From the NCBI GenBank assembly GCA_963715865.1, contig OY970280.1, positions 864,001 to 928,000 on the forward strand: a stretch of DNA of 64,000 nt, read 5' to 3'. The stretch comes from Candidatus Bathyarchaeota archaeon (GTDB lineage: Archaea; Thermoproteota; Bathyarchaeia; Bathyarchaeales; Bathycorpusculaceae). This document shows, one piece after another, positions 3,656 to 33,468 of this stretch. Within the stretch, counting starts at the first letter, position 1. Every line of letters begins with the position of its first letter. A program made the position numbers and the translations under genes. Below the pieces are notes generated by a model. That model made no database searches and was not told the origin of the DNA. It was given only the letters and a program-made list of their open reading frames with translations.

Positions 3656-3702
3656 TGGTGGGGCTGGAGATCCTTGAACCCAAAAGGGTTCAAAACCTTA
3701 TT
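3656..3702. repeat. tRNA-3'-end-like site with TTGAAC-CCAAAAGG-GTTCAA palindrome
   Basis: TGGTGGGGCTGG (reverse complement of acceptor+CCA); 3674-3702 identical to 22248-22276 (29 bp). Confidence 0.8.
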
Positions 3703-13444: not shown

Positions 13445-13999
13445 CTATTTTTTGAATTTGTCCAAATCAAATTACTGTGTAATACTCTTTTGTGCCTTAT
13501 ATCTTACGAATTCATAACACTTTTTTCTAAGTGTGGCCCTTTATAGACAGGGTCATAGCAATTGGATAAGCGGCGCACTAATCCCGGCTCTTTATTGTAG
13601 CCGCCAAAAACATTGACTTGCTGCCCATTAACACCCATGGAGAGCGAATTCGTAGTCGTGTTTGGTGGAGGGCGAGGAATTGCTTGAATGGCACTCCCTA
13701 TGTTCATGGATGGTGCAGCGCTACGCCTATCCGATGTGTTAGTCGAGTTAAAGATAGATGCAGATGGTGTTCCAAATAGCACCAAAATTATGCAAATGCA
13801 TAGAAACCGATTAGTTAACTGGTTCAGTCTCTCTCGCCTGTTTTTTAATTTACTGGTTTCAGAAACTTGAGTATGTTTAGATTTTATATTTAAGATTAAC
13901 CTATTTGCCTCGTAACTTGCCGACTATAAAAAATCATGCAAATTTTTATCTGATGCCTTAAAGTACAATTTAAACCCCAAAAGCCCAAACAGCTTAATT

Positions 14000-14641
14000 T
14001 TAGCGCTTGCGTTTCTTGAAGTAGACCAGAAGACCAGCGCAAGCAACAGCAACCAGAGCTACAGAAGCAGTTATTACTAATGTTGTTGAGAAGGAGTTTT
14101 GAGCTACGGTGACATCGTGAGGTATGGTGAAATTTTGAAATATTATGAAGGTTATTGGTTCAGAGTCTGCATTCACTGGGTAACTATTAAGCGCTGTATA
14201 ACCATTATTCACGTAGAAGCTATCTGCTTCAGCGCTTACCGTAATGTTATGCGCTCCTGATGTCAAAGTTAGGTTAGCTGAAAAGTTCAAGGTTCGTGGT
14301 GGGTAATTATTGAAAGGAGAATCGATGTCATGCACTGTAATATGGCGTTCACCGCCGTCCACTACGTAATATACAGAGGTTACATTTCCAAAAACGTCAT
14401 AGGCACCAGTAGGATACCATGCGTCAGGTTTGATTACTGAGAAGTTTAGCCAAACGTTGGGCGAATCGTAAGTTTCATTTTGAGCAGGCGAGTTCACAAC
14501 AATTGTTGGCGGCGTCTTAATGGGGTTAGGAGGAAAGGGAAATAATGGTGCAGGATTAGCCGTTGTCAAACCAACAAATGCAGTTGTATAAGAAAGCAAT
14601 ATTGCCAATATTAGAGATAACCCTAATACTGTTTTCTTCAT
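14000..14641 (-). CDS. Secreted Ig-like surface protein with C-terminal TM anchor
   Basis: Signal peptide, beta-rich body, LLVYFKKRKR end. Confidence 0.85.
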   Translation of the reverse strand: MKKTVLGLSLILAILLSYTTAFVGLTTANPAPLFPFPPNPIKTPPTIVVNSPAQNETYDSPNVWLNFSVIKPDAWYPTGAYDVFGNVTSVYYVVDGGERHITVHDIDSPFNNYPPRTLNFSANLTLTSGAHNITVSAEADSFYVNNGYTALNSYPVNADSEPITFIIFQNFTIPHDVTVAQNSFSTTLVITASVALVAVACAGLLVYFKKRKR

Positions 14642-14780
14642 GATTTTCTAACTCTTGCATCTCTTACAATAGCGTTGGAACCATATCAAATATAAGTGTA
14701 TTCGTCAAGGTTTCTCGACTAACCAAATGCTGACTGAGCAATTTCATTTCATATCTCCAAAAACCCAAACAACTTAATTT

Positions 14781-14945
14781 TCAGTGCTTGCGTTTTTTGA
14801 AGTAGACCAACAAACCAGCAACCACCACAACCGCTGCTGATGCTCCTGAAACAGCGGCAACAGTTGCGGTTGGAAAAGGCTCTATCTTTGTGTTAGGAGG
14901 CGTGACTGTGGGCGAAGGAGACGGCGAAGGAGTAGGCGAAGCAAG
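14781..14945 (-). pseudogene. Orphan C-terminal fragment of a paralogous surface protein
   Basis: Translates SPTPSPSPSPTVTPP..EPFPTATVAAV..GLLVYFKKRKH*; downstream DNA resembles that of the 14000 gene. Confidence 0.8.
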
Positions 14946-15276: not shown

Positions 15277-15451
15277 TGCGACGAGCCGAACTTGAACCCA
15301 AACCAGACTGCGTGAAAACTCAAACCGCGTTCAAAAAGTTGCGCTCTACGTGTATATGCAGCAGCGTCCTGCTACCAACATTTTTCACACAAAAAAAGCA
15401 TTTTCCTGAAACTCAATCGAGTTTTTACACAGTCTCAAACAGGTTCAAGCC
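15277..15451. mobile_element. Mini-element copy 1 (129-bp core with terminal inverted repeats) inside a TTGAAC-N8-GTTCAA site
   Basis: TTGAAC-CCAAACCA-GACTGCGTGAAAACT ... AGTTTTTACACAGTC-TCAAACAG-GTTCAAG. Confidence 0.72.
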
Positions 15452-15680
15452 CCAGACCAAACGCAAGCAGTTAAACTCTTGTTTAGTCTGTAAACTTAGG
15501 GTTTGCTAAATCTAGTCTCAGCCTTCACCGATTAAGAGTAAGTTGTTCTGCCATAAATGACCTTCGGCAAATTTAGTGTCGTTTCTGAAATTGTTCACAT
15601 GGGGTAACCTGAACTCCTTTTGTGGTCTGAGAACACATATTACAATAAGCCTTGGCAAAAGTTTCTCGCAAGTTGAAACT

Positions 15681-16745
15681 TTATTCAAATAGGGGTGAGA
15701 GATCTTGAATTCCATAATGAGATTCAACTAACGCTGTCGCTTTTTTTATAAACACATTTTCAAGAATACTTCTGAATTTTTCCAGATCTTCTAAATTCAA
15801 TTTGCAAGATGTTTTTCCATGAATGAGGTTGTTTCGCTCACTCCTTAATTTACGTATTAATTGTTGGTCGTTGCTCGTCAGAGATACACCCAACCTCTCC
15901 AGTAGCTTTTGCCATTTTACCATTAAAGGCGGTTCATTCACTTTCTTTAATGTCTCAACCAAGGCAACCTCTTCTTGAAGTGGCAAAGCAAGATTTTGAA
16001 CTGCCAAGATACTTTTGTTGATATTTTCCTTTTTAGCAAGTTTGGATACTTTTTCATTAGTGCATAGGAACTCGAACGCAATCCAGAGTTGAAGTAAATT
16101 ATCAATTAAAGATTCTATTTCGAAAGACTGCATAAGCCAACTGAGTGTTTCATATAGCGATTGAACACTTTCATTATACTGACTCTTAATTTGTTCCAGC
16201 TTGTCAAGCGTTGGAATTAATGGATCGAAGAAATCTTGAGGACTATGATGGAAAACTAACTGATGTCCAGATTGCACATTCAGTAAGTTGAAGACTGCGC
16301 CTTTTGTTATTGAATCAATAGCCAACCCATAAGGTATTAAATGACACTTTGAGAAAGCTTTACTCATGTTATAATTCAACAGTACTTTTTTGCCATTATC
16401 GTTTATAGAGGGTAAAGTAATATCTGTTCTAAATTGTATCCAATCCACCGCTCGTTTAGTAACTGTCTCAGCCTTAGTTAATGCATCTAAATAATGTTCG
16501 GCAGTCACTTCGACCACGGCAAACGATGGATTGCCCTCCCAAGGTTGATTTCCAAGTGTTTTAGAACCTCTTATTTTATCAGTTAATATTTTGCTGATGT
16601 CATTAGTAAATAGAACTTCCTGTATCGTAAACTCAGATGGAAGAATAAGCCCACGTATCGGAAAAATAACTTTGAAGTTACGTTGAACTAAAAGGGGCTG
16701 ATTACCACCATGAAAAATGGGGGGCAAGTTTGTTGACTTAGCCAC
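15681..16745 (-). CDS. ApeA-like HEPN domain protein (putative RNase), possibly 5'-truncated
   Basis: LWIAFEFL and RNNLIH (Rx4H) motifs; GTG start without clear RBS. Confidence 0.75.
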   Translation of the reverse strand: MAKSTNLPPIFHGGNQPLLVQRNFKVIFPIRGLILPSEFTIQEVLFTNDISKILTDKIRGSKTLGNQPWEGNPSFAVVEVTAEHYLDALTKAETVTKRAVDWIQFRTDITLPSINDNGKKVLLNYNMSKAFSKCHLIPYGLAIDSITKGAVFNLLNVQSGHQLVFHHSPQDFFDPLIPTLDKLEQIKSQYNESVQSLYETLSWLMQSFEIESLIDNLLQLWIAFEFLCTNEKVSKLAKKENINKSILAVQNLALPLQEEVALVETLKKVNEPPLMVKWQKLLERLGVSLTSNDQQLIRKLRSERNNLIHGKTSCKLNLEDLEKFRSILENVFIKKATALVESHYGIQDLSPLFE

Positions 16746-16797
16746 AAAATAAATAGCATCTTGGGGAGATCTTGAAAAAGGCGATGCAAGTGAAGAC

Positions 16798-17340
16798 TCA
16801 GTTCTGTTTCTTTGCTACGCGGTCTTCAGGTTTAGGCGTAGGCAAACACAAAGCTGAAAAAACACTTTCCTCTGTATCTCCAGCCACCGCAACTTTATCT
16901 TTTGTCAACCCTTCGCTGTACTTCAACCTAAAACCTTTTGACAGGGCATAACTCGCAAGCCACATGTTATGATCTGCTGAACCCGTACGGATAAGCTCTT
17001 GAATGCCAAACGTTTGCTCAGTTGCACGGTAAAAATCAACTTGAAAAAGGCTGTTTTCAAAGGGATAGTTTAGTTTTATCACGCTTTTTCCCGCACAAAT
17101 AACCTTAGCCTTCTTTAAGGCTTGAACAATTTTGCCCCAGTTACATTCAGTTCCAATAGCAACAAAATCCACGTCACCAACCGTTGGCCTCTGCCGTCTG
17201 ATGGAGCCAACTACCTCAAGCTTATCGCATAATGGCTTGACTACACTTTCAACTTGTTTAGCAAGTAGCTGTGCGTTTACTAACTCAAGCTTTGTTAAAA
17301 CATTAGGCTCTTCTTCGCCGAACAATTTAGCCTGCTTCAA
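16798..17340 (-). CDS. polX: Minimal DNA polymerase X (palm and thumb only)
   Basis: GSIRR, GDVD, QVD, RTGSADHN, EESVF..L.LP..KPEDR; 180 aa, no lyase or PHP domain. Confidence 0.85.
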   Translation of the reverse strand: MKQAKLFGEEEPNVLTKLELVNAQLLAKQVESVVKPLCDKLEVVGSIRRQRPTVGDVDFVAIGTECNWGKIVQALKKAKVICAGKSVIKLNYPFENSLFQVDFYRATEQTFGIQELIRTGSADHNMWLASYALSKGFRLKYSEGLTKDKVAVAGDTEESVFSALCLPTPKPEDRVAKKQN

Positions 17341-17373
17341 TGTTCCATTCTTCCCCAGTTCTCAACGGCAAAT

Positions 17374-17487
17374 TTATGATTTCTCTTCAATCTCCAAACG
17401 GAGCTGACAGTTTTCTTTCCCAATACAGTAATCGCAACTAACATATTCTTTTTGGGTTTGGCAATCAATCACTATTTGAGCATACAT
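17374..17487 (-). CDS. 37-aa Cys-rich peptide (not in ORF track)
   Basis: MYAQIVIDCQTQKEYVSCDYCIGKENCQLRLEIEEKS; GAGG upstream; directly upstream of polX. Confidence 0.45.
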   Translation of the reverse strand: MYAQIVIDCQTQKEYVSCDYCIGKENCQLRLEIEEKS

Positions 17488-17660
17488 ACTTTCTCAACCT
17501 CGGGAAGCAACCCTACTTGCAGAACTAGCTTATAGGCAATATCGACTAAATGACAGCACTATTTTAGCTGACTAATGCCTTTTCATCATCAATTGTAAAC
17601 AAAAATATGAGTTAAAGGTCTCTGTTTCCAGTCAACGATAATAGGCAAATGCCTCTAAAA

Positions 17661-17704
17661 GGTGGCGAGCCCGCTGGGATTTGACCCCAAATGGGGTCGG
17701 AACC
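17661..17704. repeat. tRNA-3'-like site with TTGACC-CCAAATGG-GGTCGGAA palindrome
   Basis: GGTGGCGAGCCCGCTGGGATTTG matches 23649-23671 at 21/23. Confidence 0.8.
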
Positions 17705-17800
17705 TATAACATGGAATCAACAACTTCCGAGAAGACACTGGAAAAACAATACAAGCCCTCCGGCAAACAATTTTTCAAAAAAAACAATTCTGTTTTTTTA

Positions 17801-17843
17801 TAGCGGGTCCGATGGGATGCGCTTAAACTATTAAGCGAATTCC
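17801..17843. repeat. tRNA-3'-like site joined to CGCTTAA-N4-TTAAGCG palindrome
   Basis: TAGCGGGTCCGATGGGAT identical to 22139-22156. Confidence 0.8.
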
Positions 17844-17932
17844 ACGAGTTATGAGCATAGAAGCAGTCGTTCCTTTGTTAACGAAGGTCAATCTCTCCGT
17901 ATCTCTTGCTTTCAATAGATAGTAAGAGCAAC

Positions 17933-18065
17933 ATGATGAAGCGTTACGATTTCTGTAAGTGAAGAGATAGCAAAAAAGTTAGAGGAAGAGCGAAAGAAAC
18001 GTCTATTGGATTCGATTTCCGAAACAATAAGGGTGATATCGAGCGAATACTATTCAAAAAGATGA
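17933..18065 (+). pseudogene. Ribbon-helix-helix (CopG-like) regulator, frameshifted
   Basis: MMKR then, in another frame, VTISVSEEIAKKLEEERKKRLLDSISETIRVI. Confidence 0.6.
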
Positions 18066-19277
18066 CATTCCCACCACTTCTCCGTTCGCCATTTTATAAA
18101 GAGTATAAAGTCTTCCAAAACTGTCTTCCTTATTTAGTTTTTTTGCTTCTTCCATTTTAAGACGCAAGTAGGATACAATATCTTTGTGTTCTGAATCGTC
18201 TCTCTTCTTCAGTTGGTAAAAAGCGTCCCTGAAGTCGCTCCCAAGTGTTTGCCACTTCGGGTTGCTCCACAGGGTGCTGGCATCATCGATAAGTTTCATT
18301 AAGTAATTCTTGGAATATTCATGTAATTGTAGAAGTATGTTGAAAACATTGGAAATAGAAGTAGTGTCGTAATTAGGGTCATCGTAGAATTTGCCTATTT
18401 CTTTTAGCCATTTTTGGTTGATAGCGGTTGTAACTTGTTCGCTAAAATGATTGATAATCATGGCGAGAAATTGTATATACTTCTCGGCATGAGACTCATG
18501 GAAAAGTTTCTCAGGTATAACACATTCTAAGGTTTTCTCAATTTCGTCTTTCACTTCGTTCCATTTGTAGTTGTCGCAGAGAGTACGGAGCTTATCCTGA
18601 AAATTGTCTAGCATTATTGCTTTTATGTCTGTGTTAGATGCTTCCTGTACTGCGTCTGATGCTTCTTTAAACGCATTAATTCGATTCGTATATGTAGTAT
18701 TGCGCTTAGTAATAAGCAGTTGTTGAGATTTCCACATATTATAGAGTTCGTTTGTTGTAAACCAAGCAAAAAACGATAATAACCCGATACCAAAAAGAAT
18801 TAGACTTATCTTACCAACAAGAATTTGGTTACCCATATTAGGTAACGCAGGCGTGACTGACAAGCTAAAGGCAATAGCGATTACTGTTACGCCCATGATT
18901 AGCATTGTAATCATGGTAATCCAAACCATTGGTCTCTTTTCTTTCTCTATGGGCGGTCTTCTAAAAAACTTAGAAAGTGAATTTGTGCCTTTTTGGATAG
19001 GCGGTGATATTGTGACATTTTCGCCTTTGGCGCCCGCACGATTGCGTCGTGCGTGAATCTGATAACCCAGCCAAAGAGCAGAGAGAAAGAAAATCAACAG
19101 AGCCAAAACTACGAAGAGTATAAAGTAATTTGCCAAGAAATCAACTCCGCGAAATAGAGGTTCGGGTATAAAACCCAACAAAACCAAGAGCCACAGGATT
19201 GAGCCGATGTTGCTTGTTGCTGAAAGAAGAAATTTCAACACACTCATTATCTTGTGGGTTTCCATGGTCATCAACAT
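18054..19277 (-). CDS. Hypothetical membrane protein (about 4 TM) with large helical domain
   Basis: 407-aa ORF with hydrophobic N-terminal half. Confidence 0.75.
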   Translation of the reverse strand: MLMTMETHKIMSVLKFLLSATSNIGSILWLLVLLGFIPEPLFRGVDFLANYFILFVVLALLIFFLSALWLGYQIHARRNRAGAKGENVTISPPIQKGTNSLSKFFRRPPIEKEKRPMVWITMITMLIMGVTVIAIAFSLSVTPALPNMGNQILVGKISLILFGIGLLSFFAWFTTNELYNMWKSQQLLITKRNTTYTNRINAFKEASDAVQEASNTDIKAIMLDNFQDKLRTLCDNYKWNEVKDEIEKTLECVIPEKLFHESHAEKYIQFLAMIINHFSEQVTTAINQKWLKEIGKFYDDPNYDTTSISNVFNILLQLHEYSKNYLMKLIDDASTLWSNPKWQTLGSDFRDAFYQLKKRDDSEHKDIVSYLRLKMEEAKKLNKEDSFGRLYTLYKMANGEVVGMSSF

Positions 19278-19431
19278 GTGCCCATTTAAATTTAACTTTT
19301 ACCCCGATAGTTACACTGACATTCTGAAACTCTCAAACCCCGAAAAATTATCCGAACCCCTTTTCGGTTGTTTTAAATAGCCCTTCTTTAGATACGAAGA
19401 AGTGAAAAGCAAAACGTAGGAACTAATAGAC

Positions 19432-20040
19432 TTGATGCCTAACACAAGATGTGTTAAATTTGATGTCCCCAAGGATTGCAAACTAAGAAAATACTCGGAG
19501 CAATTAGTGTACATTTTTAAAAACAAAGACTACAAAGAAGATTTCAATAACTTTAGCGACCAACTATTCCATGATAGCTTTGCTTTCGTCAAAAAAGAGC
19601 TAAAAACAGACAAGCATCCTGTTATAGTAGTCGAGTTCGTTTACACTCAAACAGAATATGAAAGACTTGAAAAACAAGTAAACCAATTTGTGTACCAAAG
19701 AGAGAAGCCAAAAATTAAAACTCTTGGGTTTACGATAACAAGTAACTTCAGCAACAAGATTTACATTAATTTTGAGCCTCTTTTTGGGCTAATAGAAAAA
19801 AATTGTTCCGCCTTCGTGTTTAATCTAGTTTCAACGCTAATTCATGAAATTTTGCATTGCTTCTATCGTGACTTGAAAGATGAGCAAGCAACTTACGACC
19901 TTCACTGTAAAATGCTTGAAGTCTTTTTAGGCATAACTTTACCCGATGAAATGAAAGAGACAAAAGCATCCGATTACTATACATCAAAGATGCAGAAGTT
20001 AAATAGCTTAGGTGACGATTTTTCAAATAGACAAACCTAA
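19432..20040 (+). CDS. Zincin-like metallopeptidase domain protein
   Basis: TLIHEILHCF (HExxH). Confidence 0.65.
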   Translation: MMPNTRCVKFDVPKDCKLRKYSEQLVYIFKNKDYKEDFNNFSDQLFHDSFAFVKKELKTDKHPVIVVEFVYTQTEYERLEKQVNQFVYQREKPKIKTLGFTITSNFSNKIYINFEPLFGLIEKNCSAFVFNLVSTLIHEILHCFYRDLKDEQATYDLHCKMLEVFLGITLPDEMKETKASDYYTSKMQKLNSLGDDFSNRQT

Positions 20041-20102
20041 AAAGCGTTGCCCCAAGTCACTCATGTAAACGAAGACGCACAGCAAAAAGAAAAAAGGAAG
20101 AT

Positions 20103-21101
20103 TTAAGATGATTCTCTTACAGCAAAGAGAGTTTCCATCTTTTTCTGGTAATCTCTAAAACCGAATCCTGGATAAATCAAAAGAGTTTTTGGTTCAGCGA
20201 CTACGCTTTTTAGATACCCCTCATAGATTTTCTTGTTGTTTTTATCTTCCAAGAAATCCATTATTTGATTTAGCTGTTTTTCTCCAGCTTCACCAAGCTT
20301 CTTTTCTATGTTATCTATCTTCTCATCAAAGTTCTCAGAATCTTCCGAGTAGCGAAGCGGATTAGTTAGCGAGATTTTAATGCTTCTGAATAAGTCTTCA
20401 AGGTCCCAAGGTTGAAATATGCTGTTTTCTGCTTCTTTGAGTTTTTTTAGATGTCGCATAGCTTCGTAATAAACTGCTTGATCCGTTGGTTCACCTTGCT
20501 CTGGAAATTCTTTCTTCAAGCTGAAACGTGCGACAAGGGCAACCTGATTCAATCTTGCTGTTTCCACTTCTTTCTGTTCTTGTCGGCAAACAAGATTATA
20601 GGCTTCCAAAAGTAGCTTTCTGTATCTTAATATGATTTCATGTTCCTTAGGACCGCGCTCTGAAAGAACAAATTTTTCCCATATGTTCATAATTCTTTCT
20701 TCGACTTCAATAAAAGGAGAACCCTTTGAAAAATCGTCATCAATTAGCTTTCTAAGAATTGGTGAATCTGTAACAATCAGCCAACGAAAGTAGTAAGAAA
20801 GCCCTAATTTATTTTTGTCCTTTTCATGCAGCTGTTTGGAGAATTGTTCATTCAAGAATTCAGAAATATCACTGAGGAACATAGACTCTAAGCCTATTGG
20901 CTTTCTCTCAAATTTACGGGTTTCAATATTTCTTTCAATTAAACCTAGACTTTGAAGATGTTTTAGGTAATCGGAAAGGAGCGTAGGTTGATGAGAAAAA
21001 CCAGACAATTCCCCTATCTCTTTATTCCTTTGTGGCCCTTTTTCCAGAGCCTTTAATATTCTTATTTCGCCAGGAGCCAGTTTCCTCTCCTTACTTTTCA
21101 T
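20103..21101 (-). CDS. Winged-HTH domain protein
   Basis: ILKALEKGPQRNKEI..LSDYLKHLQSLGLIER N-terminal wHTH. Confidence 0.75.
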   Translation of the reverse strand: MKSKERKLAPGEIRILKALEKGPQRNKEIGELSGFSHQPTLLSDYLKHLQSLGLIERNIETRKFERKPIGLESMFLSDISEFLNEQFSKQLHEKDKNKLGLSYYFRWLIVTDSPILRKLIDDDFSKGSPFIEVEERIMNIWEKFVLSERGPKEHEIILRYRKLLLEAYNLVCRQEQKEVETARLNQVALVARFSLKKEFPEQGEPTDQAVYYEAMRHLKKLKEAENSIFQPWDLEDLFRSIKISLTNPLRYSEDSENFDEKIDNIEKKLGEAGEKQLNQIMDFLEDKNNKKIYEGYLKSVVAEPKTLLIYPGFGFRDYQKKMETLFAVRESS

Positions 21102-21237
21102 TAACTACACCATAACTATAGAAACTACAGTATAAGTATATTAGTTTTTCTTGGATTTTAACTATGATTAATGAGAAGTAACAAATGCCAAACATTAGAA
21201 AATTAATGAAACTTTATTACGGCAAAGAACCACGCGA

Positions 21238-21768
21238 GTGGTATATACTTCACAGGTTTTTCGGAGGGATTCTTTGACTCAATCGTTTAATGTCATGATT
21301 TGCGCTTCTCAAGAAACGCATCCAGACTTCATTAAATGTGCTGAAGGTGTTTGCAAAAAGAGACGATATAATATGATTTTCTCTCCATACAAATCACAAG
21401 AAAAACTTTTAGAAAAATTCGAAAACAGTTTACCTGACGCCAATATAATTTTAATGGACGTAACACCTCAAGAGCTTAAAGATTCAGAAAATAAAACACA
21501 CTACATTACAAATCAAGGAGTACTGATCGAATTTGGGTATATCATTGCCTTAAGAGACTATTACAAATTTCTTTACATTTTTTGTGATGCAACTAAGCTA
21601 GAAAAAACACACCCATATGTTCGAAACGAAACCATCAACAAATATTCAAAAGACAATCTGAGAGAAAAAATTCTCGGAAAAGTTGACGAACGCCTAAAAA
21701 GAATACCTTGCGAGTACATTACAGATAGAAAACGAATTAAAAACCTAGAAGAAAAAATTCTTAGATAA
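21238..21768 (+). CDS. Nucleoside 2-deoxyribosyltransferase/TIR-like domain protein
   Basis: ANIILMDVT..NQGVLIEFGYIIAL motif. Confidence 0.6.
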   Translation: MVYTSQVFRRDSLTQSFNVMICASQETHPDFIKCAEGVCKKRRYNMIFSPYKSQEKLLEKFENSLPDANIILMDVTPQELKDSENKTHYITNQGVLIEFGYIIALRDYYKFLYIFCDATKLEKTHPYVRNETINKYSKDNLREKILGKVDERLKRIPCEYITDRKRIKNLEEKILR

Positions 21769-21774
21769 AGGAAC

Positions 21775-22001
21775 GAGTTAGACGGCAAAGCGTTAACCTA
21801 CGAATGGACAGACATTCCCTCTATTGGTGCTCATGTTTTTGAACGCTTAGATTGCCCAACCAAAAAATCCTCTTGCTTCTAGAGAGAATATCCAAATTGA
21901 TCACGAGAGAGGGAGAAACTGTTCTTGACCCCTTCTGTGGTTGTGGAACTACAATTATGGCCTTTAAGGGATTGAAGAAACGGTGGATTGGTAAAGACTA
22001 A
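21775..22001 (+). pseudogene. C-terminal remnant of an N6A/N4C DNA methyltransferase
   Basis: EWTDIPSI..ERLDCPTKK, frameshift, then LLERI..GETVLDPFCGCGTT..RWIG*. Confidence 0.8.
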
Positions 22002-22120
22002 CATAATTGGCAATTTCATTTATTCATTCCCGTCTGACCTCTGAGAAAGCACTGATGATCACTATAGCGGCGGGGTCAAATTACAGCATCCAACAAACGT
22101 TGCAAAGCGGGTCATACAAA

Positions 22121-22181
22121 GGATTCGCTTAATGTTATTAGCGGGTCCGATGGGATTTGAACCGTGTTGGGTTCAAGCCGC
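22121..22181. repeat. GGATTCGCTTAA half-site plus tRNA-3'-like site TTGAAC-CGTGTTGG-GTTCAAGCCGC
   Basis: Direct reading; GTTCAAGCC arm is shared with the mini-element flanks. Confidence 0.8.
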
Positions 22182-22231
22182 ATTTATCGGACAACGCTTC
22201 TCCCGAACCAAACCAACATTCTATCTTGAAT

Positions 22232-22276
22232 GCGGACCCAGTGGGATTTGAACCCAAAAGGGTTCAAAACCTTATT
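22232..22276. repeat. tRNA-3'-like site TTGAAC-CCAAAAGG-GTTCAA
   Basis: GCGGACCCAGTGGGATTTGAAC; last 29 bp identical to 3674-3702. Confidence 0.8.
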
Positions 22277-22373
22277 CAAATAAGAAGGGATAATCTTCTC
22301 GTCTCAAATAGGAGCGGGCGGAAAAGAAGACTGACAACTCTGCTAATAAAATGTTAAGAATTATCCTCCAAAA

Positions 22374-22409
22374 GCGGGCCCGCTGGGACTCGAACCCCGC
22401 GGGGCGAAT
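22374..22409. repeat. tRNA-3'-like site, degenerate right arm
   Basis: GCGGGCCCGCTGGGACTCGAAC-CCCGCGGG-GCGAAT. Confidence 0.7.
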
Positions 22410-22482
22410 ATGTACTATCCACCTTTTTCCATGCACAAAAATTTAAACAGAGAGCCGCTTTTCGTGTATTAGAGGAAACTAA

Positions 22483-22722
22483 GTGTCTGGAAAATGGCTT
22501 AATTCTCACACCTATGGCTTAATGGCTCTTCTGTCTGGTATAACAGGCATCTTGTCTATAGCGGTTTCGCGAGCCTATTTGCCTGCTGGTTCATTGTTTG
22601 CGTTGCCTCTTTTAGTTTTAGGTTTATTTCTAGTTGTGGTTTCGGTTGTTTTCTTGTTCTTTTTCTTTACGATGCAGTGGCGTTGGACACATGGTCAACC
22701 ACAGCCACGTCCATTGACCTAA
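22483..22722 (+). CDS. Small 2-TM membrane protein
   Basis: 79 aa, two hydrophobic helices. Confidence 0.6.
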   Translation: MSGKWLNSHTYGLMALLSGITGILSIAVSRAYLPAGSLFALPLLVLGLFLVVVSVVFLFFFFTMQWRWTHGQPQPRPLT

Positions 22723-22759
22723 AAGCTAAATCGTTACGTTGTTACTAATCAGCCTTTTG

Positions 22760-23164
22760 TCACCCTTGCAAAGTTATTGTTTGTCCTGCAACATCATAGG
22801 AAATTACATTATACAAGTAGTTACCCAATAACAGAGTTTGATTAGAACCTAAGTCGTATTGAACAATTGGTTTACTATGTTCAAAAGTCGGAACAACAGG
22901 TGGCAGAAAACTTGCTACAGTTTGATTCATGTAAACTAACGTGTATTGAGAATCGTCTATCTCGTCCCCAACATGATAAGTTGCAGTAACTGGTATTTGC
23001 TTTTGAGAATTTTGAGCATTTTTAATTATCGGCTCTCCATACAGGACAAAGGTGAAAACTATGAGTGTCGTAACGACAATTGCTAGGATGATTTTTTGTT
23101 TATTTTTATCCATTTTTACCACCGATTTTAGCTTTTTCAATCTCCACTCGCTAGATGTTTTCAT
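22760..23164 (-). CDS. Membrane-anchored hypothetical protein
   Basis: N-terminal TM followed by beta-rich domain. Confidence 0.65.
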   Translation of the reverse strand: MKTSSEWRLKKLKSVVKMDKNKQKIILAIVVTTLIVFTFVLYGEPIIKNAQNSQKQIPVTATYHVGDEIDDSQYTLVYMNQTVASFLPPVVPTFEHSKPIVQYDLGSNQTLLLGNYLYNVISYDVAGQTITLQG

Positions 23165-23230
23165 CTTTGAAGAATAGTGTTTGCAAGCGGGATTGCACGG
23201 AAATAGATGGGGTCTGAACTGCTTTTTTCT

Positions 23231-23488
23231 TTACGTACGACGTTTTCGTCGCCGAATTAAAATCATCACTCCGTACATCACTCCTCCAGTGAATAGCGAA
23301 ATAAAGACTCCTTGAAATAGATTATACGCCAGACTCTCACCATCAAAAAAATTAGAGATTAAACCAAACGATAAGAAGAAACCTACCATAATTATAATAA
23401 TTCCCGCGTTTGGAAGCTCTTGAATCTTGAAAAGTCGCTTTAACCTGTCTTCAAATGAGGACAAAGTAGATGCCACTACCTTCAACAC
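23231..23488 (-). CDS. Small 2-TM membrane protein
   Basis: Two TM helices and a basic RRRKRR tail. Confidence 0.6.
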   Translation of the reverse strand: MLKVVASTLSSFEDRLKRLFKIQELPNAGIIIIMVGFFLSFGLISNFFDGESLAYNLFQGVFISLFTGGVMYGVMILIRRRKRRT

Positions 23489-23648
23489 ATTGTGAGAGCA
23501 GCAAGTATTTTACATTTTTCCCTGTCTTTGGGCAGAGCGAGTTTCTTGAATACCGATGGCGGAATACGCCAAGATGTACGTGGTAAGTTATCCCACGAAA
23601 AGCTTTCAAAAGGTTCCAGTCAAACGATAATGAGTAAATGTCTATGCA

Positions 23649-23744
23649 GGTGGCGAACCCGCTGGGATTCGTTTAATTATTTAAGCGAATCCTTTGTCTT
23701 AACCACAAACGAATAGTGGATCGCTGGGATTTGAACCCTAGGAC
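23649..23744. repeat. Two tandem tRNA-3'-like sites; the first carries the GGATTCGTTTAA-TTAT-TTAAGCGAATCC palindrome
   Basis: 23649-23692 and GTGGATCGCTGGGATTTGAACCC at 23716-23738. Confidence 0.78.
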
Positions 23745-23895
23745 AAGTGGAGATATCTCCCGCGCCATCTTCCCTCTTTTTCTTTTGGCTAAAGAAAACT
23801 CGGTTTTTCATAACCATTTCATTTTTGATTCTCGGATAACGTTCGTGCTGGAGTCGCATTTTTTATTATTCATACTTGCAGCTACGCCAGTCTCG

Positions 23896-24108
23896 TTAGG
23901 GGTTTACTCTTCCAACTCTTCTCAACAGTACGTTGGCTATCAAAGCCACAGCCAAATCGGCTAAAATCCAAACTATGAACGTAATAACTCCTAAGAGAGC
24001 CAAAAAAGTGAACAGCAGCAGAAGAGCTATTGCAATTATGCCGATTCTTTTCTTTCTTCGGCGTAATTTATCAGGGGTCAAATTAGTTGCGGCAGGCATA
24101 TCCGTCAC
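23896..24108 (-). CDS. Small membrane protein
   Basis: Basic patch followed by a hydrophobic hairpin. Confidence 0.65.
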   Translation of the reverse strand: MTDMPAATNLTPDKLRRRKKRIGIIAIALLLLFTFLALLGVITFIVWILADLAVALIANVLLRRVGRVNP

Positions 24109-24168
24109 TTTTAACTCAATATCAAAGGTCTTAAAATATTAATCTTCAAGATATTCTAGATAATTGCT

Positions 24169-24438
24169 GTGCAATTACAGAAACTCAGAGAGGTTAGCTG
24201 GTCTAACCCTGATGTCCCGCTCAATGAAGTCAGATTACTTTTTAGTTTCATCAAAGGTTGGGACCGCTTTTTTCAAGGGGATGCTGACCACTTTAAAGAA
24301 ATCTATACAGAAGTTTTTCCTGCAATCGATAAGGTAAGAAAAGAGAAAATTGAAGAAATAATACTCACAGACGAAATGACTGTAGAAATTCGTAGAACCT
24401 TTGATAAAATAGCTAATTGCACAGGATTTGATAGATAG
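24169..24438 (+). CDS. Hypothetical protein
   Basis: 89-aa ORF, plausible composition. Confidence 0.45.
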   Translation: MQLQKLREVSWSNPDVPLNEVRLLFSFIKGWDRFFQGDADHFKEIYTEVFPAIDKVRKEKIEEIILTDEMTVEIRRTFDKIANCTGFDR

Positions 24439-24491
24439 GATCCACAGATGCCTCCAAGATTCTTCATACTCTTGTCCCAAACTTCTTCATA

Positions 24492-24740
24492 ATGTGGGAT
24501 GATCGTATAAAGGAGATGACCGTACAAGGTGGAAACAACGGAGCGGTTTATGCTATCAAGTTTTTGCCAAAAATGCAATTGGAGCTGAGAGAAGCAATTG
24601 AAACTTGCAAGAAAGATAATGGAACAACACGCGAAGAAGCGATTAGATACATCTGCGAGAAGTGCCACGGAAGAACTCTAGCCAAGATAGTTGACGAATA
24701 TAACTATATGAAATATACTAAAGGATATTCTACGCTCTGA
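24492..24740 (+). CDS. Hypothetical protein
   Basis: 82-aa ORF. Confidence 0.45.
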   Translation: MWDDRIKEMTVQGGNNGAVYAIKFLPKMQLELREAIETCKKDNGTTREEAIRYICEKCHGRTLAKIVDEYNYMKYTKGYSTL

Positions 24741-24761
24741 GTGCAGCAAGAGTTGGTTGGA

Positions 24762-25400
24762 TTACATTTTAATTACTTGAAACTTCTCAGGAAGCTTCTC
24801 TCTTAATGCTTTAACAAAACTGTCTTCCTTTGCATAGGCAGCGTATTTCAATTCACCGCTAATTGAGCTGGGGAGAGGAGCTATAATCATACAGTCCAAA
24901 GGCGAGTTTCTGAAGATCGTTTTCTTGATAAGATCTGGAGAAGCAGAGAGTTCAGTGTAATGACATAAAGCCGCCAAAACAGTATCTATAAAAATGACAA
25001 CTATTTTCTTGAAGCCATTGAAGTCAGAATAGTCTTTTGCTGCTGCATGTTCAATTGCTCTGTCCACATCTCCAGTAAAATCTTCTTCGCCTCTTGTCCT
25101 AATTTGTTGAGTTACCTCTTCATTCTCAGCATATTGTATTGAAGTTATCTCGTACACTATTTTGCAATCGGGGATTTGAAAATCAGGTGTTTTCTTTATT
25201 GATGTTGGTATTTTGGTTGATTTGCCAAACTTGCCCATTATTCGCTTTGCTTCGTTTTCGCGAGTACCATCCATTACTTCACCATCAATATATTTTTGGT
25301 ACTTCTTTTTTCTCTCAGAATTAGCGGGTGTTGGGTTGTAGTAAATATCTTCCAAATCGGGCATATCTTTAGGAAGGAAGTTTTTTACCATATCCAGCAC
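24762..25400 (-). CDS. Hypothetical protein, possible PD-(D/E)XK nuclease fold
   Basis: KTPDFQI..VYEITSI pattern. Confidence 0.55.
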   Translation of the reverse strand: MLDMVKNFLPKDMPDLEDIYYNPTPANSERKKKYQKYIDGEVMDGTRENEAKRIMGKFGKSTKIPTSIKKTPDFQIPDCKIVYEITSIQYAENEEVTQQIRTRGEEDFTGDVDRAIEHAAAKDYSDFNGFKKIVVIFIDTVLAALCHYTELSASPDLIKKTIFRNSPLDCMIIAPLPSSISGELKYAAYAKEDSFVKALREKLPEKFQVIKM

Positions 25401-25471
25401 TTACATGCAGTTCCTTTATATGCCTTATCTGCTTGAGCAATTTTTAACATTTTAGCTTTCATTACCAGTTA

Positions 25472-25648
25472 ATGCCAGACTTATCCAGACCTTGTGATGC
25501 TTGCGGTAAGATGATTGGCGGAGGCTTTAAGCACTGCCCAAGATTTCAAATCTACTTCTGCTATACCTGTTGGATTGAGCTAATGTATATTCAAAAGAAG
25601 CTTCCGCTTGAATGCCCTATGTGCGGTGGAAAGCTTATTATTCCTTAA
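25472..25648 (+). CDS. 58-aa zinc-finger protein (not in ORF track)
   Basis: MPDLSRPCDACG..HCP..FCYTC..ECPMCGG. Confidence 0.65.
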   Translation: MPDLSRPCDACGKMIGGGFKHCPRFQIYFCYTCWIELMYIQKKLPLECPMCGGKLIIP

Positions 25649-25734
25649 ACTACGAGCGCGCTTAAGCAACCAGACTCTCAAGCGTCCATACGAAAACTAC
25701 AAAAGACGTAAATCGCCGATTGGAGTAGTGCTCA

Positions 25735-26184
25735 TTGATATGGATGAAAGGCTTAAAATTAATTCCATTCGTATTAATCTCTTTAGTTTTCACCTTCCTC
25801 GCTCTTGGTGTAGCCTACGGGGAAACAACCTCTACTACAGTTCAAAATGTGCCTTCCGTGAATGATGTAACTACTTCAACAACAACGACTTCCACAACAA
25901 CAACTACATCAACAGTGACTACATTCACTGACTCAAATGGGATAGTACATCATGCCTACAATATATCGGTGTCAGAATTAACCCCCACTATGTTAACATC
26001 GGCTACCGTAACTACATCGAGTGGATTTATAGTACCTGCGCGTGATGCAGACTCAGATCCGTCCCAAGGATACGTTTTCGATTACTTGAATTTTGAATAT
26101 GCAGGTATCATGCTAACAGGGATTATTTCTGCATTACTACTGTTAAATGTACCTCATCCAGTTAAAACCTCAAAAGTAAAGTGA
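25735..26184 (+). CDS. Secreted Thr-rich protein with C-terminal TM
   Basis: Signal peptide, poly-Thr tract, TM anchor. Confidence 0.7.
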   Translation: MIWMKGLKLIPFVLISLVFTFLALGVAYGETTSTTVQNVPSVNDVTTSTTTTSTTTTTSTVTTFTDSNGIVHHAYNISVSELTPTMLTSATVTTSSGFIVPARDADSDPSQGYVFDYLNFEYAGIMLTGIISALLLLNVPHPVKTSKVK

Positions 26185-26195
26185 ATCGCGCGCAT

Positions 26196-26800
26196 GCTTG
26201 TTCCGAAATTAGTTGGCGAAGTATCTAATGCTTCTCGTTTTGCCAATTTTGTTTGTGTTAACGGCGGCTTGAGCCGTAATCAGCATGATTAGAATGCAAA
26301 GTTGAGAATGAAACGTTAAATTGGTCAAACCTCGCAGATTGTGTTCTTTTAAGCCTGCTAGGTTCTTGAGTCTGCTGAAAACCCGCTCTACAGCCACCCG
26401 TTTCTTGTATGCTGATTTGAATTTTCGTGGTCCGTGACTCCTAAACTTCCGATCAACTCTCAATATGCCTTTAACGCCTTTACTCTGATTCCTCGGATAA
26501 GGAATAACCGGCAACGCTCCACACTCCAATGCTGTTTCCCTCAGATTTGCTGCGCTGTACTGTGAGTCAGCCAAGAGCTTCCTTGGTTTTACGTATTCTG
26601 ATGCTTTCGCAAACAGGCTTATGGAATGTTTCTTCTCGTTCTCGTTTGCCGAAACCACAATCATCGCAATCGGCAGCTCACTTTTGACGTCAACAGCCAA
26701 ATGAAGCCTGTAACCTAAGTCTTTGGATTTGACTGCTCTTCCAATCCTTGATTCAGGATCGCTATAGCCTGTGCGGTCAAGGTTTCGCCTTTTATCTCGG
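26196..26800 (-). mobile_element. Truncated IS (DDE transposase, IS4/IS5/IS1182-like), C-terminal part
   Basis: YSDPESRIG..LGYRLHLAVD, LLADSQY, KKRVAVERVFSRLK; possible terminal repeat GCTTGTTCCGAAA at 26196. Confidence 0.85.
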
Positions 26801-26975
26801 CTTTCTCAAAATCACGTAAAAGGTACATTTCAGGGTCTTGCCTCTCCATGATGTTAAGGCGCGGGTTATGTGTCTCTTGTTGGATGATTAGGCGATGAGT
26901 GGTTAACCAGCCTACACCATTTGCCAGCTTGAAGGATAAGATTGTTTTTTCGCCTGGGAAGCCGTCAAATTTCAT
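26715..26975 (-). pseudogene. Hypothetical gene truncated by the transposase fragment
   Basis: Its last ~25 codons are transposase DNA read out of frame. Confidence 0.55.
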
Positions 26976-27428
26976 AATGCTCTTTTAGTGGCTTACCACT
27001 ATTTTGATTTTTCCCATTTTTATCGACTATCTCTTAACAATCCGTAGGAAAGCATTGCTTTCAAGCGTTTAGCGAAAAGTATTTTGGTTCAATTCCAGGG
27101 CGTAACAGTAAGGGCAGAAAGTGTATAGTCAATCAGGACTAACCGCCAAAGTCGGCTTACTATACTAAGAAAAAAGCCATAGCGCCAAAACATCAAGCAA
27201 TACCTCTTTCTTTTTTAATTTATCTCGAAGGCAAAGTGTTTGTTCGTTTCTTGTCGTAATCACCATCTTTCCGCAAGTTTTATATTTGTCGTCACCATTC
27301 AATTTTCAATATTTTCACTATTTCCAAGGTTTTATAAGTAAGTTGGAGACAGAGAGGGCTCTATTGGGCGAGAGCATTTACGCTTCTTGCTCGATAAAAA
27401 ATAAAATTATAGGAAAGGAAAAACACAA

Positions 27429-30080
27429 ATGAAATTTGCTAAAAACAAAACTATTGCTATTGCAATCGCTATATTCTTAATGCTTTCAATGACAGCTTCA
27501 ATGATGCTAGTTCCGGCTAATGCTCACACACCGGCATGGCAGGTTCCTACATATGCATTCATCAATGTCGCACCTAACCCAATAGGGGTAGGGCAACAAG
27601 TCTCTGTAACATTTTGGCTTGATAAAGTCCCGATCGGTGCAGAAGGGCAATGGGGATCAAGATGGCATAACATGAAAGTAACTGCTAAGGATCCTGACGG
27701 AACCAACACAACAATAGGCACGTTTAACTCTGACCCCAACGGCGGTGCAACAACATATTTCACTCCGACAAAAACAGGCACCTACACTTTCTACTTTGAG
27801 TTCCCAGGACAGATAGCACAAAATGAAAACCCATACCCATACGTAGGATTCATCGGACTTGGACTTGACTACGTCAACGACACTTTCTTACCAAGCAGCG
27901 CCTCCACAACACTTACAGTACAGTCACAAGCAATCTCCTACGCTTATGGAGCATCCCCCCTTCCAACTGCATACTGGACACGTCCAATAAACTCCATGAA
28001 CAGAGAATGGGCACCCATCACTGGCAACTGGCTAGGCCTTGGAGCAACATCCTTTGGCGTAACCGGCATGTACACTGACACTGGAGGAGTAACCTCTGCA
28101 GGAGGAAACTTTGACCCATACTCAACAGCACCAAATAGCGCCCACGTCATGTGGACGCAACCTATAGCGTTCGGCGGTCAGATTGGAGGAGAATTCGGAA
28201 CCGGCGACGCAGCTATCTATGCCACTGGAACAGCTTACGAATGCAAATTCGGCGCCGTAATACTAAACGGAATTCTCTATTATACCGAGTATCCGGGCGC
28301 AGGAACCAACCCATCAGGTCTGAAGGCTGTTGACTTAAGAACTGGCGCAACAGTTTGGGACAAGAACATCACCGACCCGCTAAGATGCGGCATGGTAACA
28401 AACTTCCAAACCGGCGACCAATACGGAGGACACGCATACCTGTTCACTACAAATTCCTATGAAGGATTCGCTGAGCCTTACTCTGCACTCACCGCACCCA
28501 CTACTTGGGGAATGTACGATGCAATGACCGGAGACTGGATACTAAACATTGCAGGTGTACAAGCCTCTGATGATCTTGTAGAAGGTCCAAACGGAGAAAT
28601 ACTATGCTACTACGTTAACAGCTCATCTACAACCGGTGCAGCCTCCCTTAGCATGTGGAATTCATCTTTATGCATCGCGCAAGGCTCCCAGTCAAATCTT
28701 TTCTATCTTACTTACAGCGCTAAAGAAATTTGGCGACCCGTGCAAGGAGCAACTATCCCATGGAGTGCAGGAATCCAATGGAGCGTACCCATCGCGACCA
28801 GTATCAATGGTGTTTCAATGGCTCCATACACTTTAGGCGTAGCAGGGATCGACAACAACACCATACTTATGACCGCGACTACAGGAGGAATATTCGCCGG
28901 ACCACCAGGCGGAGCATCATTAGGCTTCAGATATGATGCAGGTTACAGTACAACAGGTCAACTGCTTTGGGGTCCAGTGAACCGCACGTTAACACCATTC
29001 ACTACACAAGTTCTGTCAGTTGGTGACGGAAAATACGCTGAATACACTCAACAAATGCTGACGTGGACAATGTACGATCTCAAAACTGGAAACAAACTAT
29101 TCACAACGCCACAATCGAATAGTTCCTGGAGCTACTATGACTTCACTGGTCCAAGCACTTTTGGATACGGAAACTTCTACACTTGGGGCTTAGGTGGAAC
29201 AGTATACTGCTACGATGACACTACCGGTCAACTTAAATGGAGTTGGTCCGCTGGAACAGCAGGTCTAGATACCCCATACGGAACCTGGCCTTTAGGTACC
29301 TGGTCAAGTCACCATATCCTTGCAGACGGCAAGCTCTATGTTAGAGCCGGACATGACTACACTCCACCAGTCTTCAAAGGTGCAAAGATTTACTGTATCA
29401 ACGCTACAACTGGAAAAGAAATTTGGGACTCACTTAGCTTCGACATCGTAAGTTCGCCTGCACTCGCAGATGGATACATGGTCTGGGATAACGGCTATGA
29501 CAACCAAATATACTCTTACGGCCAGGGACCAAGCGCATTGACTGTTTCAGCGCCTAGCGTTGGCGTGACAACCTCTACGCCTATAACTATAAGCGGCACC
29601 GTAACCGACATCTCTGCCGGAACAAAACAAGACGCGGTAGCATCGAACTTCCCGAACGGTCTTCCATGCGTTTCTGACGCAAGCATGAGCAGGTGGATGG
29701 AATACGTTTACCAGCAGCAACCATGCCCAACTAATGTGACTGGTGTTCCAGTTACCCTAAGTGTTCTTGACTCAAACGGCAACTACAGACAAATCGGCAA
29801 CACCACAAGTAATGCAGACGGCTTGTTCGCTTATACTTGGACACCTGATATTCCAGGCAGTTACACTGTCATCGCTAACTTTGCAGGTTCAGAATCGTAC
29901 TATCCATCATCCGCTGACGCAGCCTTCTATGCCAGTTCTCCAGCGCCAACAGCATCTCCATATCCAGTGACCGTTTTGCCTCCGACTGAAATGTACATTG
30001 GCGCAGCAGCAGCCGCAATAATAGTTGCAATAGCCATAGTCGGCGTTATAATAGTAATGATGCTTAGGAAGCGACCATAA
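27429..30080 (+). CDS. Large secreted PQQ-like beta-propeller surface protein with Ig-like domains and C-terminal TM
   Basis: Signal peptide, repeated D..TG..W motifs, C-terminal TM plus RKRP. Confidence 0.88.
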   Translation: MKFAKNKTIAIAIAIFLMLSMTASMMLVPANAHTPAWQVPTYAFINVAPNPIGVGQQVSVTFWLDKVPIGAEGQWGSRWHNMKVTAKDPDGTNTTIGTFNSDPNGGATTYFTPTKTGTYTFYFEFPGQIAQNENPYPYVGFIGLGLDYVNDTFLPSSASTTLTVQSQAISYAYGASPLPTAYWTRPINSMNREWAPITGNWLGLGATSFGVTGMYTDTGGVTSAGGNFDPYSTAPNSAHVMWTQPIAFGGQIGGEFGTGDAAIYATGTAYECKFGAVILNGILYYTEYPGAGTNPSGLKAVDLRTGATVWDKNITDPLRCGMVTNFQTGDQYGGHAYLFTTNSYEGFAEPYSALTAPTTWGMYDAMTGDWILNIAGVQASDDLVEGPNGEILCYYVNSSSTTGAASLSMWNSSLCIAQGSQSNLFYLTYSAKEIWRPVQGATIPWSAGIQWSVPIATSINGVSMAPYTLGVAGIDNNTILMTATTGGIFAGPPGGASLGFRYDAGYSTTGQLLWGPVNRTLTPFTTQVLSVGDGKYAEYTQQMLTWTMYDLKTGNKLFTTPQSNSSWSYYDFTGPSTFGYGNFYTWGLGGTVYCYDDTTGQLKWSWSAGTAGLDTPYGTWPLGTWSSHHILADGKLYVRAGHDYTPPVFKGAKIYCINATTGKEIWDSLSFDIVSSPALADGYMVWDNGYDNQIYSYGQGPSALTVSAPSVGVTTSTPITISGTVTDISAGTKQDAVASNFPNGLPCVSDASMSRWMEYVYQQQPCPTNVTGVPVTLSVLDSNGNYRQIGNTTSNADGLFAYTWTPDIPGSYTVIANFAGSESYYPSSADAAFYASSPAPTASPYPVTVLPPTEMYIGAAAAAIIVAIAIVGVIIVMMLRKRP

Positions 30081-30311
30081 AAATGCCAAACAAAATCCAC
30101 TTTCCCCTTTTTTAGTCTCTAGAAAGCAATGGAGAAGAAATGGGCTGAGAAGGCTCTGGTTAAATTAACGATTGACCAATAGCAAATCGAAATAGCATTT
30201 GCATTCTTTTCTCCTAAAGAGTGTTCCAGAGCCTCAGCAAACCCTAAATGCTCAAAGATGTCGCCAATCAGTCATTGTCTTTTTTTAGGAAACATGGTTT
30301 AGTCTTTCCAA

Positions 30312-30437
30312 GTGGCGCCGGGAGAGAGGGATGAAGATTTGAATCCTTGAAGCGTCAAAGGAAAATTCGAATTTAGGTAAATAATTTTTATGTAAGGTTC
30401 CACTAGACTTTGGGTTCGGAGCCCAGCGGCCCCGCCA
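30312..30437. repeat. Two tRNA-3'-like fragments in opposite orientation
   Basis: GTGGCGCCGGGAGAGGGAT (30312) and GGGTTCGGAGCCCAGCGGCCCCGCCA (30412-30437). Confidence 0.7.
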
Positions 30438-30484
30438 TTAAGAAAGCGATTTGGCTGACTCTAAAAAACTGTAAGATAAAGATT

Positions 30485-30659
30485 GCGGCTTGAACCCGTT
30501 TGAGAGTGTGTGAAAACTCAAATTTAGTTTTAGAAATTGCAGCTTATATCTAAAAACACGTCCTGGCACCCTACCGAATCGACGTAAAAGTAGCAATTTT
30601 CTGAAATTGAAACTAGTTTTCACACAGTCTCGTTTGGGTTCAAGTTCGGCTCGGCCCAT
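30485..30659. mobile_element. Mini-element copy 2 (126-bp core)
   Basis: GCGGCTTGAAC-CCGTTTGA-GAGTGTGTGAAAACT ... AGTTTTCACACAGTC-TCGTTTGG-GTTCAAGTTCGGC. Confidence 0.72.
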
Positions 30660-33414: not shown

Positions 33415-33468
33415 CTACAGTAACATAGGGTTTCGGCATAAAAGATTTGTGGTTTTGAACCAGAAGTC

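Follow-up and report, generated by a model that had tools for sequence, protein, structure and literature searches.

The stretch of DNA analysed here (64 kb, hereafter the window) carries at 15304-15436, on the plus strand, a non-coding element of 133 bp, referred to below as copy 1. It is bounded by terminal inverted repeats of 17 bp (SAGASTGTGTRAAAACT): the left one reads CAGACTGCGTGAAAACT (15304-15320, plus strand) and matches the ends of full-length IS1182 elements; the right one, when read inwards, is GAGACTGTGTAAAAACT (15420-15436, minus strand). The two repeats are complementary at 15 of 17 positions, and such repeats are conserved across all the related copies described below. The left end is of a type that we call End A (..GAAAACTCAAAC..) and the right end of a type called End B (..AAAACTCGATTGAGTTTCAGGAAAATGC, inward reading). 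A 4-bp target-site duplication, AAAC, flanks the element on the left (15300-15303) and on the right (15437-15440), and outside it lie the two half-sites of a palindromic target, CTTGAACCC at 15291-15299 and AGGTTCAAG at 15441-15449. The left half-site belongs to a minus-strand flank (15277-15299) in which it runs into a degenerate fragment resembling the 3′ end of tRNA-Val(TAC). The sole open reading frame across copy 1 is a 115-aa TTG frame, which is not conserved and extends through the unrelated flanks.

A previous interpretation, the sequence-only reading, had parsed the same region as a TTGAAC half-site (15292-15297), a left spacer CCAAACCA (15298-15305), a left arm GACTGCGTGAAAACT (15306-15320), a right arm AGTTTTTACACAGTC (15420-15434), a right spacer TCAAACAG (15435-15442) and a GTTCAAG half-site (15443-15449), these being the positions of the motifs in the sequence. 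Its central observation, a non-coding mini-element of about 130 bp, is real, with the boundaries corrected to those given above, and so are the 15-nt arms as inverted repeats (13 of 15 positions complementary) and the occurrence of CAAAC in direct orientation in both 8-bp spacers. The spacers are correctly positioned, but do not constitute a unit: each is made of the last base of a half-site (9 bp in the present parsing), the duplicated 4-bp loop and the start of a terminal repeat. Just to the right of copy 1, a stretch of about 100 bp (15471-15574) has matches of 77-84% in at least seven congeneric genomes.

A second copy of 130 bp is found at 30502-30631, also on the plus strand. Its duplication is GTTT (30498-30501 and 30632-30635), its left half-site is again CTTGAACCC (30489-30497), and its right half-site, GGGTTCAAG, is joined to a fragment of the 3′ end of tRNA-Val(TAC) (30636-30658, plus strand); its terminal repeats are complementary at 16 of 17 positions. 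When up to one mismatch is allowed, the arm motif occurs at four places in the window, forming two inverted pairs (15306/15434 and 30504/30629), and at no further place in the 2.35-Mb single-contig genome; the host genome has only these two copies. With up to three mismatches there are 5 matches in the window for 7.6 expected. Elsewhere in the window, a repeat at 14757-14819 and 13976-14038 was considered as a further copy and rejected, being the coding 3′ end of genes for membrane-anchored proteins. This repeat (13976-14038 and 14757-14891) matches many congeners, with up to 94% identity, and encodes on the minus strand the C-termini of small proteins, with a hydrophobic stretch followed by a basic tail (..YFKKRKR*); it looks like a C-terminal membrane-anchor or sorting signal and is not a mobile element.

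The two ends can be distinguished in both copies, End A containing ..AAAACTCAAAT/C.. and End B ..AAAACT-N-TTTCA-N-TTTCAGAAAATTGC. End A is on the left with respect to the plus strand in both cases, but the target sites are oppositely oriented. Furthermore, the interiors are only about 67% identical, and the closest relatives elsewhere are not the same: copy 2 has a 94% identical counterpart in the genome of another species (G076), and the best foreign match of copy 1 reaches 73%. Taken together, the diverged interiors, the common orientation of the bodies in inverted targets and the differing foreign matches indicate that the two copies are independent insertions, made by diverged members of the family into two inverted copies of one type of site. 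The site that received both of them derives from a tRNA-Val fragment. One could instead regard the two copies as the inverted ends of a single element of about 15.4 kb (15277-30658), since the segments 15277-15320 and 30615-30658 form an inverted repeat of 44 nt (91%) with its arms facing outward, and the interval between them is a mosaic island with genes of unknown or defence-like function. We find this very improbable. The common 44 nt correspond to the target site plus one terminal repeat; each copy is complete, being bounded by two terminal repeats and a 4-bp duplication that belong to it alone; the orientation of bodies and targets and the divergence of the interiors are at odds with a single unit; other genomes normally contain the element as complete solo copies; and no second locus was seen in which the same 15-kb unit is bounded by both copies.

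The minus strand of copy 1 is predicted to fold into a single long hairpin (-77.7 kcal/mol, z = -4.98 relative to shuffled sequences), and a long hairpin is predicted for both strands. Such a stem would explain the inverted arms and, together with the tightly conserved length (128-131 bp in the genus), might point to a function at the RNA level for which the element would be conserved, either as a cis-regulatory hairpin or as the gene of a structured non-coding RNA. However, inverted ends placed within a palindromic site give this kind of fold automatically. Rfam 15 gave no match on the element, whether gathering thresholds were applied or E values as high as 5 were admitted, and the interior, as seen from the two window copies, is poorly conserved. 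The copies are also scattered, patchily distributed among species and accompanied by target-site duplications, and their ends are identical to those of transposase-encoding insertion sequences. A conserved RNA is, for these reasons, hardly credible as an explanation.

Relatives of the element are numerous in the genus, where matches are present in 40 out of 120 species-level genomes, with up to 10 per genome (these are numbers of matches and not exact copy numbers); none was found in 16 genomes from other families of the same order. We retained 33 distinct complete copies from congeners. They have a 16-nt core at their ends and measure almost always 128-129 bp from first to last base, and 21 of them possess a perfect 4-bp direct repeat immediately outside the terminal C or G. 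In a wider set of archaeal copies a perfect duplication is found in 24 cases out of 38; assuming a chance rate of 1/256 per copy, about 0.15 would be expected. At least 12 different tetranucleotides are duplicated among the archaeal copies (AAAT, ATTT, GTTT, ATTA, TGTT, GTTC, AATT and others). A perfect duplication is missing in about a third of the archaeal copies and in about half of the bacterial ones presented below. In a few relatives the 4-nt flanks are not direct but inverted, with TGTT at one end and AACA at the other: L208 (G094:C3), L034 (G018:C17) and a site of the host genome (C1:2354172-2354202), all situated in a GCGCATGCG-type palindrome. By analogy with the stem-loop replacement of IS1272, these flanks may represent a second mode of insertion.

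A pattern scan (TGTGTRAAAACT-N88-112-AGTTTTYACACA) of one genome per prokaryotic species extended the family beyond the genus, to at least 119 loci. Among the matches listed there are metagenome-assembled genomes (MAGs) of Bathyarchaeota/Bathyarchaeia from peat and bog, some copies of which have flanks in common with congener copies (L089 = L012, L090 = L030/L032 and L092 = L031), MAGs of Nitrospirota, Acidobacteriota, Proteobacteria and others, and three cultured isolates, Bordetella trematum, Achromobacter dolens and Salinisphaera japonica. The flanks in common suggest that the genus of the window belongs to Bathyarchaeia. The bacterial copies among the matches listed (L058-L137) are mostly of 139-140 bp and have only the ends, about 17 nt, in common with the archaeal copies; 53 out of 100 show a perfect 4-bp duplication, chiefly GGCC, GACC or GGTC, and almost all lie in local palindromes centred on GGCC or GACC (e.g. 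..GCTTTG-GGCC-CAAAGC..). One locus, L135, on a contig titled as an Acidobacteriota MAG, carries a 130-bp copy of archaeal type, whose End B resembles that of Bathyarchaeia copies and whose flank is tRNA-like; this contig may be mis-binned. In bacteria, the same type of end is found on named IS1182 elements as well: CAGAYTGTGTCRAAACG, flanked by GGCC, for an ISPa22-like element on a bacterial plasmid (AP028203.1), and CAGACCGTGTGAAAAC for an IS1182 copy on a Paracoccus yeei plasmid.

The identity of the element is revealed by larger relatives that possess the same ends. Among the relatives displaying a single arm followed by a different sequence, one (G022:C2) proved to be a complete element of 1647 bp, with ends CAGACTGTGTAAAAAGT and CAGACTGTGTTAAAACT and an ATTT duplication, inserted in the same type of palindrome (GGTTCCGAACCC and GGGTCTGAGACCC on either side, followed by a tRNA-like tail). 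Its sole large ORF encodes a protein of 487 aa (P0001) with the Pfam domains DUF772, DDE_Tnp_1_6 and DDE_Tnp_1. Against the NCBIfam model NF033551, ‘IS1182 family transposase’, this protein scores 382.8 bits for a cut-off of 270 and covers profile positions 2-487 of 488. Eight more full-length copies (1629-1649 bp) have ends as in G022:C2 and again occupy palindromic targets; when G022:C2 is included, 6 of the 9 are flanked by a perfect 4-bp duplication. Within the genus, 57 of the 120 genomes contain transposase matches; intact ones are numerous, and several form identical multi-copy sets, which suggests recent activity. Transposase and MITE are found together in 29 genomes, i.e. 29 of the 40 that bear the MITE, a purely descriptive figure given that related genomes are not independent. 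Other IS1182 sub-lineages, with protein identities of 46-66%, retain the end of about 16 nt, and in 15 full-length copies from several sub-lineages no subterminal match to the MITE was found beyond about 17 nt.

Because the same ends, the 4-bp duplication and the palindromic targets are all found in full-length elements that encode a transposase, we conclude, with a probability of about 0.9, that the element is an IS1182-family MITE, placed by a DDE transposase in the 4-bp loop of a palindrome. The chemistry would be that of the IS1182 family. The MITE having no gene of its own, a full-length IS would provide in trans an IS1182-type DDE transposase, for which the 17-bp terminal inverted repeats would serve as binding and cleavage sites. 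The enzyme would join the 3′ ends of the element to two positions of the target, staggered by 4 bp, in the loop of a palindrome prone to form a hairpin or a cruciform, and gap repair would then duplicate the 4-bp loop; the target would be recognized as a structure. The variation of the 4-bp repeat from copy to copy fits a staggered cut followed by fill-in, and not a fixed attP/attB overlap.

The sequence-only reading had favoured another mechanism, in which a tyrosine recombinase would exchange strands in the 8-bp spacer of TTGAAC-N8-GTTCAA, the element being a minimal integrative unit bordered by attL and attR. In its favour, the target is a dyad-symmetric site of the kind such enzymes use; tRNA 3′ fragments, from which att sites are usually made, form part of it, and formally one could take the direct repeat of the spacers for an overlap region. 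A weak recombinase-like ORF is present as well, at 32107-33414, beside a tRNA-Gly gene. The common core is, however, just 4 bp long and differs between copies (AAAC, GTTT, ATTA, TGTT, AATT, GGCC), so that a single attP could not match all the overlaps. In addition, the inner ends (CAGTCT/AGACTG) bear no resemblance to the half-sites TTGAACCC/GGGTTCAA, and one recombinase would therefore have to combine two specificities. What the larger elements with these ends encode is a DDE transposase, not a recombinase, and the same ends and 4-bp duplication recur in bacteria, in unrelated palindromes centred on GGCC. We thus hold recombinase-mediated integration to be very unlikely, and the attL/attR assignment falls with it. 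What survives of that proposal is the notion of a minimal, non-autonomous, MITE-like element centred in a palindromic site. The larger autonomous elements with the same ends for which it proposed to search do exist (1.63-1.65 kb), with an IS1182-family DDE transposase in place of a recombinase. Other ideas (an origin of replication, an H/ACA guide RNA, a split tRNA) were dropped in view of the duplications and of the transposase-bearing relatives.

The recombinase-like ORF deserves a word of its own. It specifies 435 aa (32107-33414, in the region 32107-33546) and lies directly downstream of tRNA-Gly(GCC); it matches Phage_integrase with E = 7e-4 and a XerA-type model with 32.8 bits, far below the cut-off. 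Its sequence and location make it a candidate for the integrase of the island lying on its left, and it may well act on the palindromes themselves. No link was found between it and the mini-element.

Every feature of an IS1182-family MITE as described here has a precedent in that family. ISPse1, one of its full-length members, measures 1653 bp; its inverted repeats are of 16 bp and its direct repeat of 4 bp (PMC3281130). For Methanosarcina acetivorans, PMC3852290 lists MITEs of 160-169 bp that derive from ISMac2, another member, and one set of them has a 4-bp direct repeat. Our element resembles the ISMac2 MITEs in being a small, archaeal, non-coding IS1182 derivative with terminal inverted repeats and multiple copies; it differs from them in the phylum of its host (apparently Bathyarchaeia), its length (130-133 bp) and its shorter terminal repeat (about 17 bp versus 25-26 bp). 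The marked preference for palindromes made of tRNA fragments that we observe here is not reported for the ISMac2 MITEs in PMC3852290. Targeting of palindromes by IS1182 family members is credited to Siguier et al. in PMC5678879. The Staphylococcus member IS1272 targets stem-loops and moves by ‘stem-loop-replacing’ transposition; in pathway (c) of the model proposed for it, attack at the loop causes the loop alone to be duplicated, at both ends (PMC5678879). Our element is like IS1272 in that it targets inverted repeats or stem-loops rather than a fixed sequence, and the loop duplication corresponds to pathway (c) (PMC5678879). In contrast, IS1272 usually deletes the target stem-loop without duplication, an outcome unlike that at our element, where the stem persists and the 4-bp loop is duplicated. 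With full-length IS1182 elements of the ISPse1 and ISPa22-like kind it has in common the type of terminal repeat (CAGAC/TGTGT..AAAAC) and the 4-bp direct repeat, and its autonomous relatives in the genus are, like ISPse1, about 1.65 kb long; those full-length ISs encode a transposase of about 480 aa, whereas the window MITE encodes nothing. Outside the family, IS1397 and ISKpn1 (IS3 family) insert in the loops of REP/BIME palindromes of enterobacteria and produce a short duplication. The likeness is one of behaviour only, IS family, host and palindromes all being different.

The nature of the targets can be appreciated from the empty sites. TTGAAC-N8-GTTCAA occurs 3 times in the window for 0.37 expected. 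Two of the occurrences read TTGAACCC-AAAA-GGGTTCAA: one (3674-3693) adjoins a fragment resembling the 3′ end of tRNA-Pro, the other (22248-22267) adjoins another tRNA 3′ fragment. The third, TTGAACC-GTGTTG-GGTTCAA (22157-22176), directly adjoins a sequence (22141-22164) that agrees with the 3′ end of tRNA-Arg(TCT) at 20 of 20 positions. Removing the element together with one copy of its 4-bp repeat gives the form of these empty sites, as the sequence-only reading had anticipated for an excision. More generally, many copies, and the empty sites too, are bordered on their outer side by the 3′ end of a tRNA that the host genome really encodes. For copy 2 the match to tRNA-Val(TAC), at 30636-30658, shows 2 mismatches in the last 20 nt of the real gene; the likeness to the same tRNA is weaker at 15277-15299, and that of 3657-3673 to tRNA-Pro(CGG) was established by eye, with one indel. 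The identity begins inside the T-arm, and the other arm of the palindrome is not tRNA sequence; ARAGORN detected no intact tRNA genes in the flanks. Over 12 positions, the flanks outside the duplication are complementary at 6.29 on average, compared to 4.74 for shuffled partners (maximum of 5.79 in 200 shuffles). A half-site resembling the tRNA T-arm (GGGTTCAAATCC-like) abuts the duplication in half of the MITE or IS copies (24 out of 48), for a background of 0.1%.

Clusters of tRNA 3′-end fragments are also present in the window at 3657-3702, 17661-17843 and 22121-22409, and elsewhere in the genome around C1:197595, 219240 and 1732491. They match real tRNAs (e.g. Arg-TCT and Pro-CGG) and are joined to palindromes of several classes, TTGAACCC/GGGTTCAA, GCGCTTAA/TTAAGCG and TTGACCCC/GGGGTC; an identical stretch of 29 nt occurs at 3674-3702 and 22248-22276. 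The clusters look like stacked att remnants of tRNA-integrating elements. Elsewhere in the host genome, tRNA fragments follow the tRNA gene from which they derive at a distance of 0.3-9 kb, downstream of it and in direct orientation. A tRNA fragment so disposed is the classical footprint of integrative elements, and it is on account of this arrangement that we read the target palindromes as putative att-type remnants of elements that integrate into tRNA genes.

As regards the state of the two loci before insertion, the site predicted for copy 2 exists unfilled in the congener G097 (CTTGAACCC-GTTT-AGGTTCAAG-CACGGCTCGGCCCA, with 3 mismatches in 36); this site is not orthologous, lies outside any tRNA gene and has unrelated wider flanks. 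In 119 congeners, 1.6-kb queries around the two copies matched nothing but repeats and fragments of genes; an orthologous empty allele was found for neither locus, and the two flanks were never joined in any of these genomes. A pattern search for the empty form of another well-conserved copy (the L030/L032 site) was also without match. Among public reads, only one sediment-metagenome run contained a part of the stretch (6% of the sampled words), and no RNA data set containing it was listed; the run gave short contigs containing related MITE ends from other loci, and neither an empty site nor a circle junction appeared among them. Insertion at the window loci is accordingly deduced from the duplications and from paralogous empty sites rather than from polymorphism.

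Why should half of the copies sit next to tRNA fragments? One reason could be that, in this genus, the IS1182 lineage and its MITE home to the dyad centre of att-type sites left by tRNA-integrating elements, such a site being composed of a tRNA 3′ fragment and an inverted half-site resembling the tRNA T-arm. This is a tentative proposal, which we regard as rather unlikely. The alternative is that any palindrome can be hit, those made of tRNA fragments being merely the commonest available.

The host genome contains no intact IS1182 transposase and no match to NF033551 above the cut-off. Its only trace of the family is a relic of 54 C-terminal amino acids (C1:2353905-2354066) with a degenerate end near 2354202. 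With no intact partner transposase in the genome, both window copies are probably stranded, and it is most likely that they are now immobile relics. A separate remnant of a DDE transposase, of 163 aa (26209-26700, minus strand; DDE_Tnp_1), gives partial matches to IS1182 and IS5 models; it is too unlike the partner transposase of the MITE to be detected by tblastn.

In terms of annotation, the label of IS1182-family MITE can now be given to both window copies and to more than 100 relatives, and the idea of a site-specific mini-integrative element can be dropped. Bathyarchaeia and many bacterial phyla possess MITEs of 130-140 bp with near-identical ends, each of them occupying the 4-bp loop of a local palindrome, and such a set offers clean natural data on structure-directed targeting by IS1182 transposases. 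Since half of the copies in the genus lie in palindromes made of tRNA fragments, these MITEs mark, and possibly disable, old integration sites, and the island around the two window copies is a patchwork of palindromic sites resembling att remnants. If homing to att-type sites were to prove true, the IS1182 elements and their MITEs would parasitize the sites at which integrative elements recombine; an insertion that splits such a site would lock the integrated island in place, and both the IS1182 elements and the MITEs would spread with the islands.
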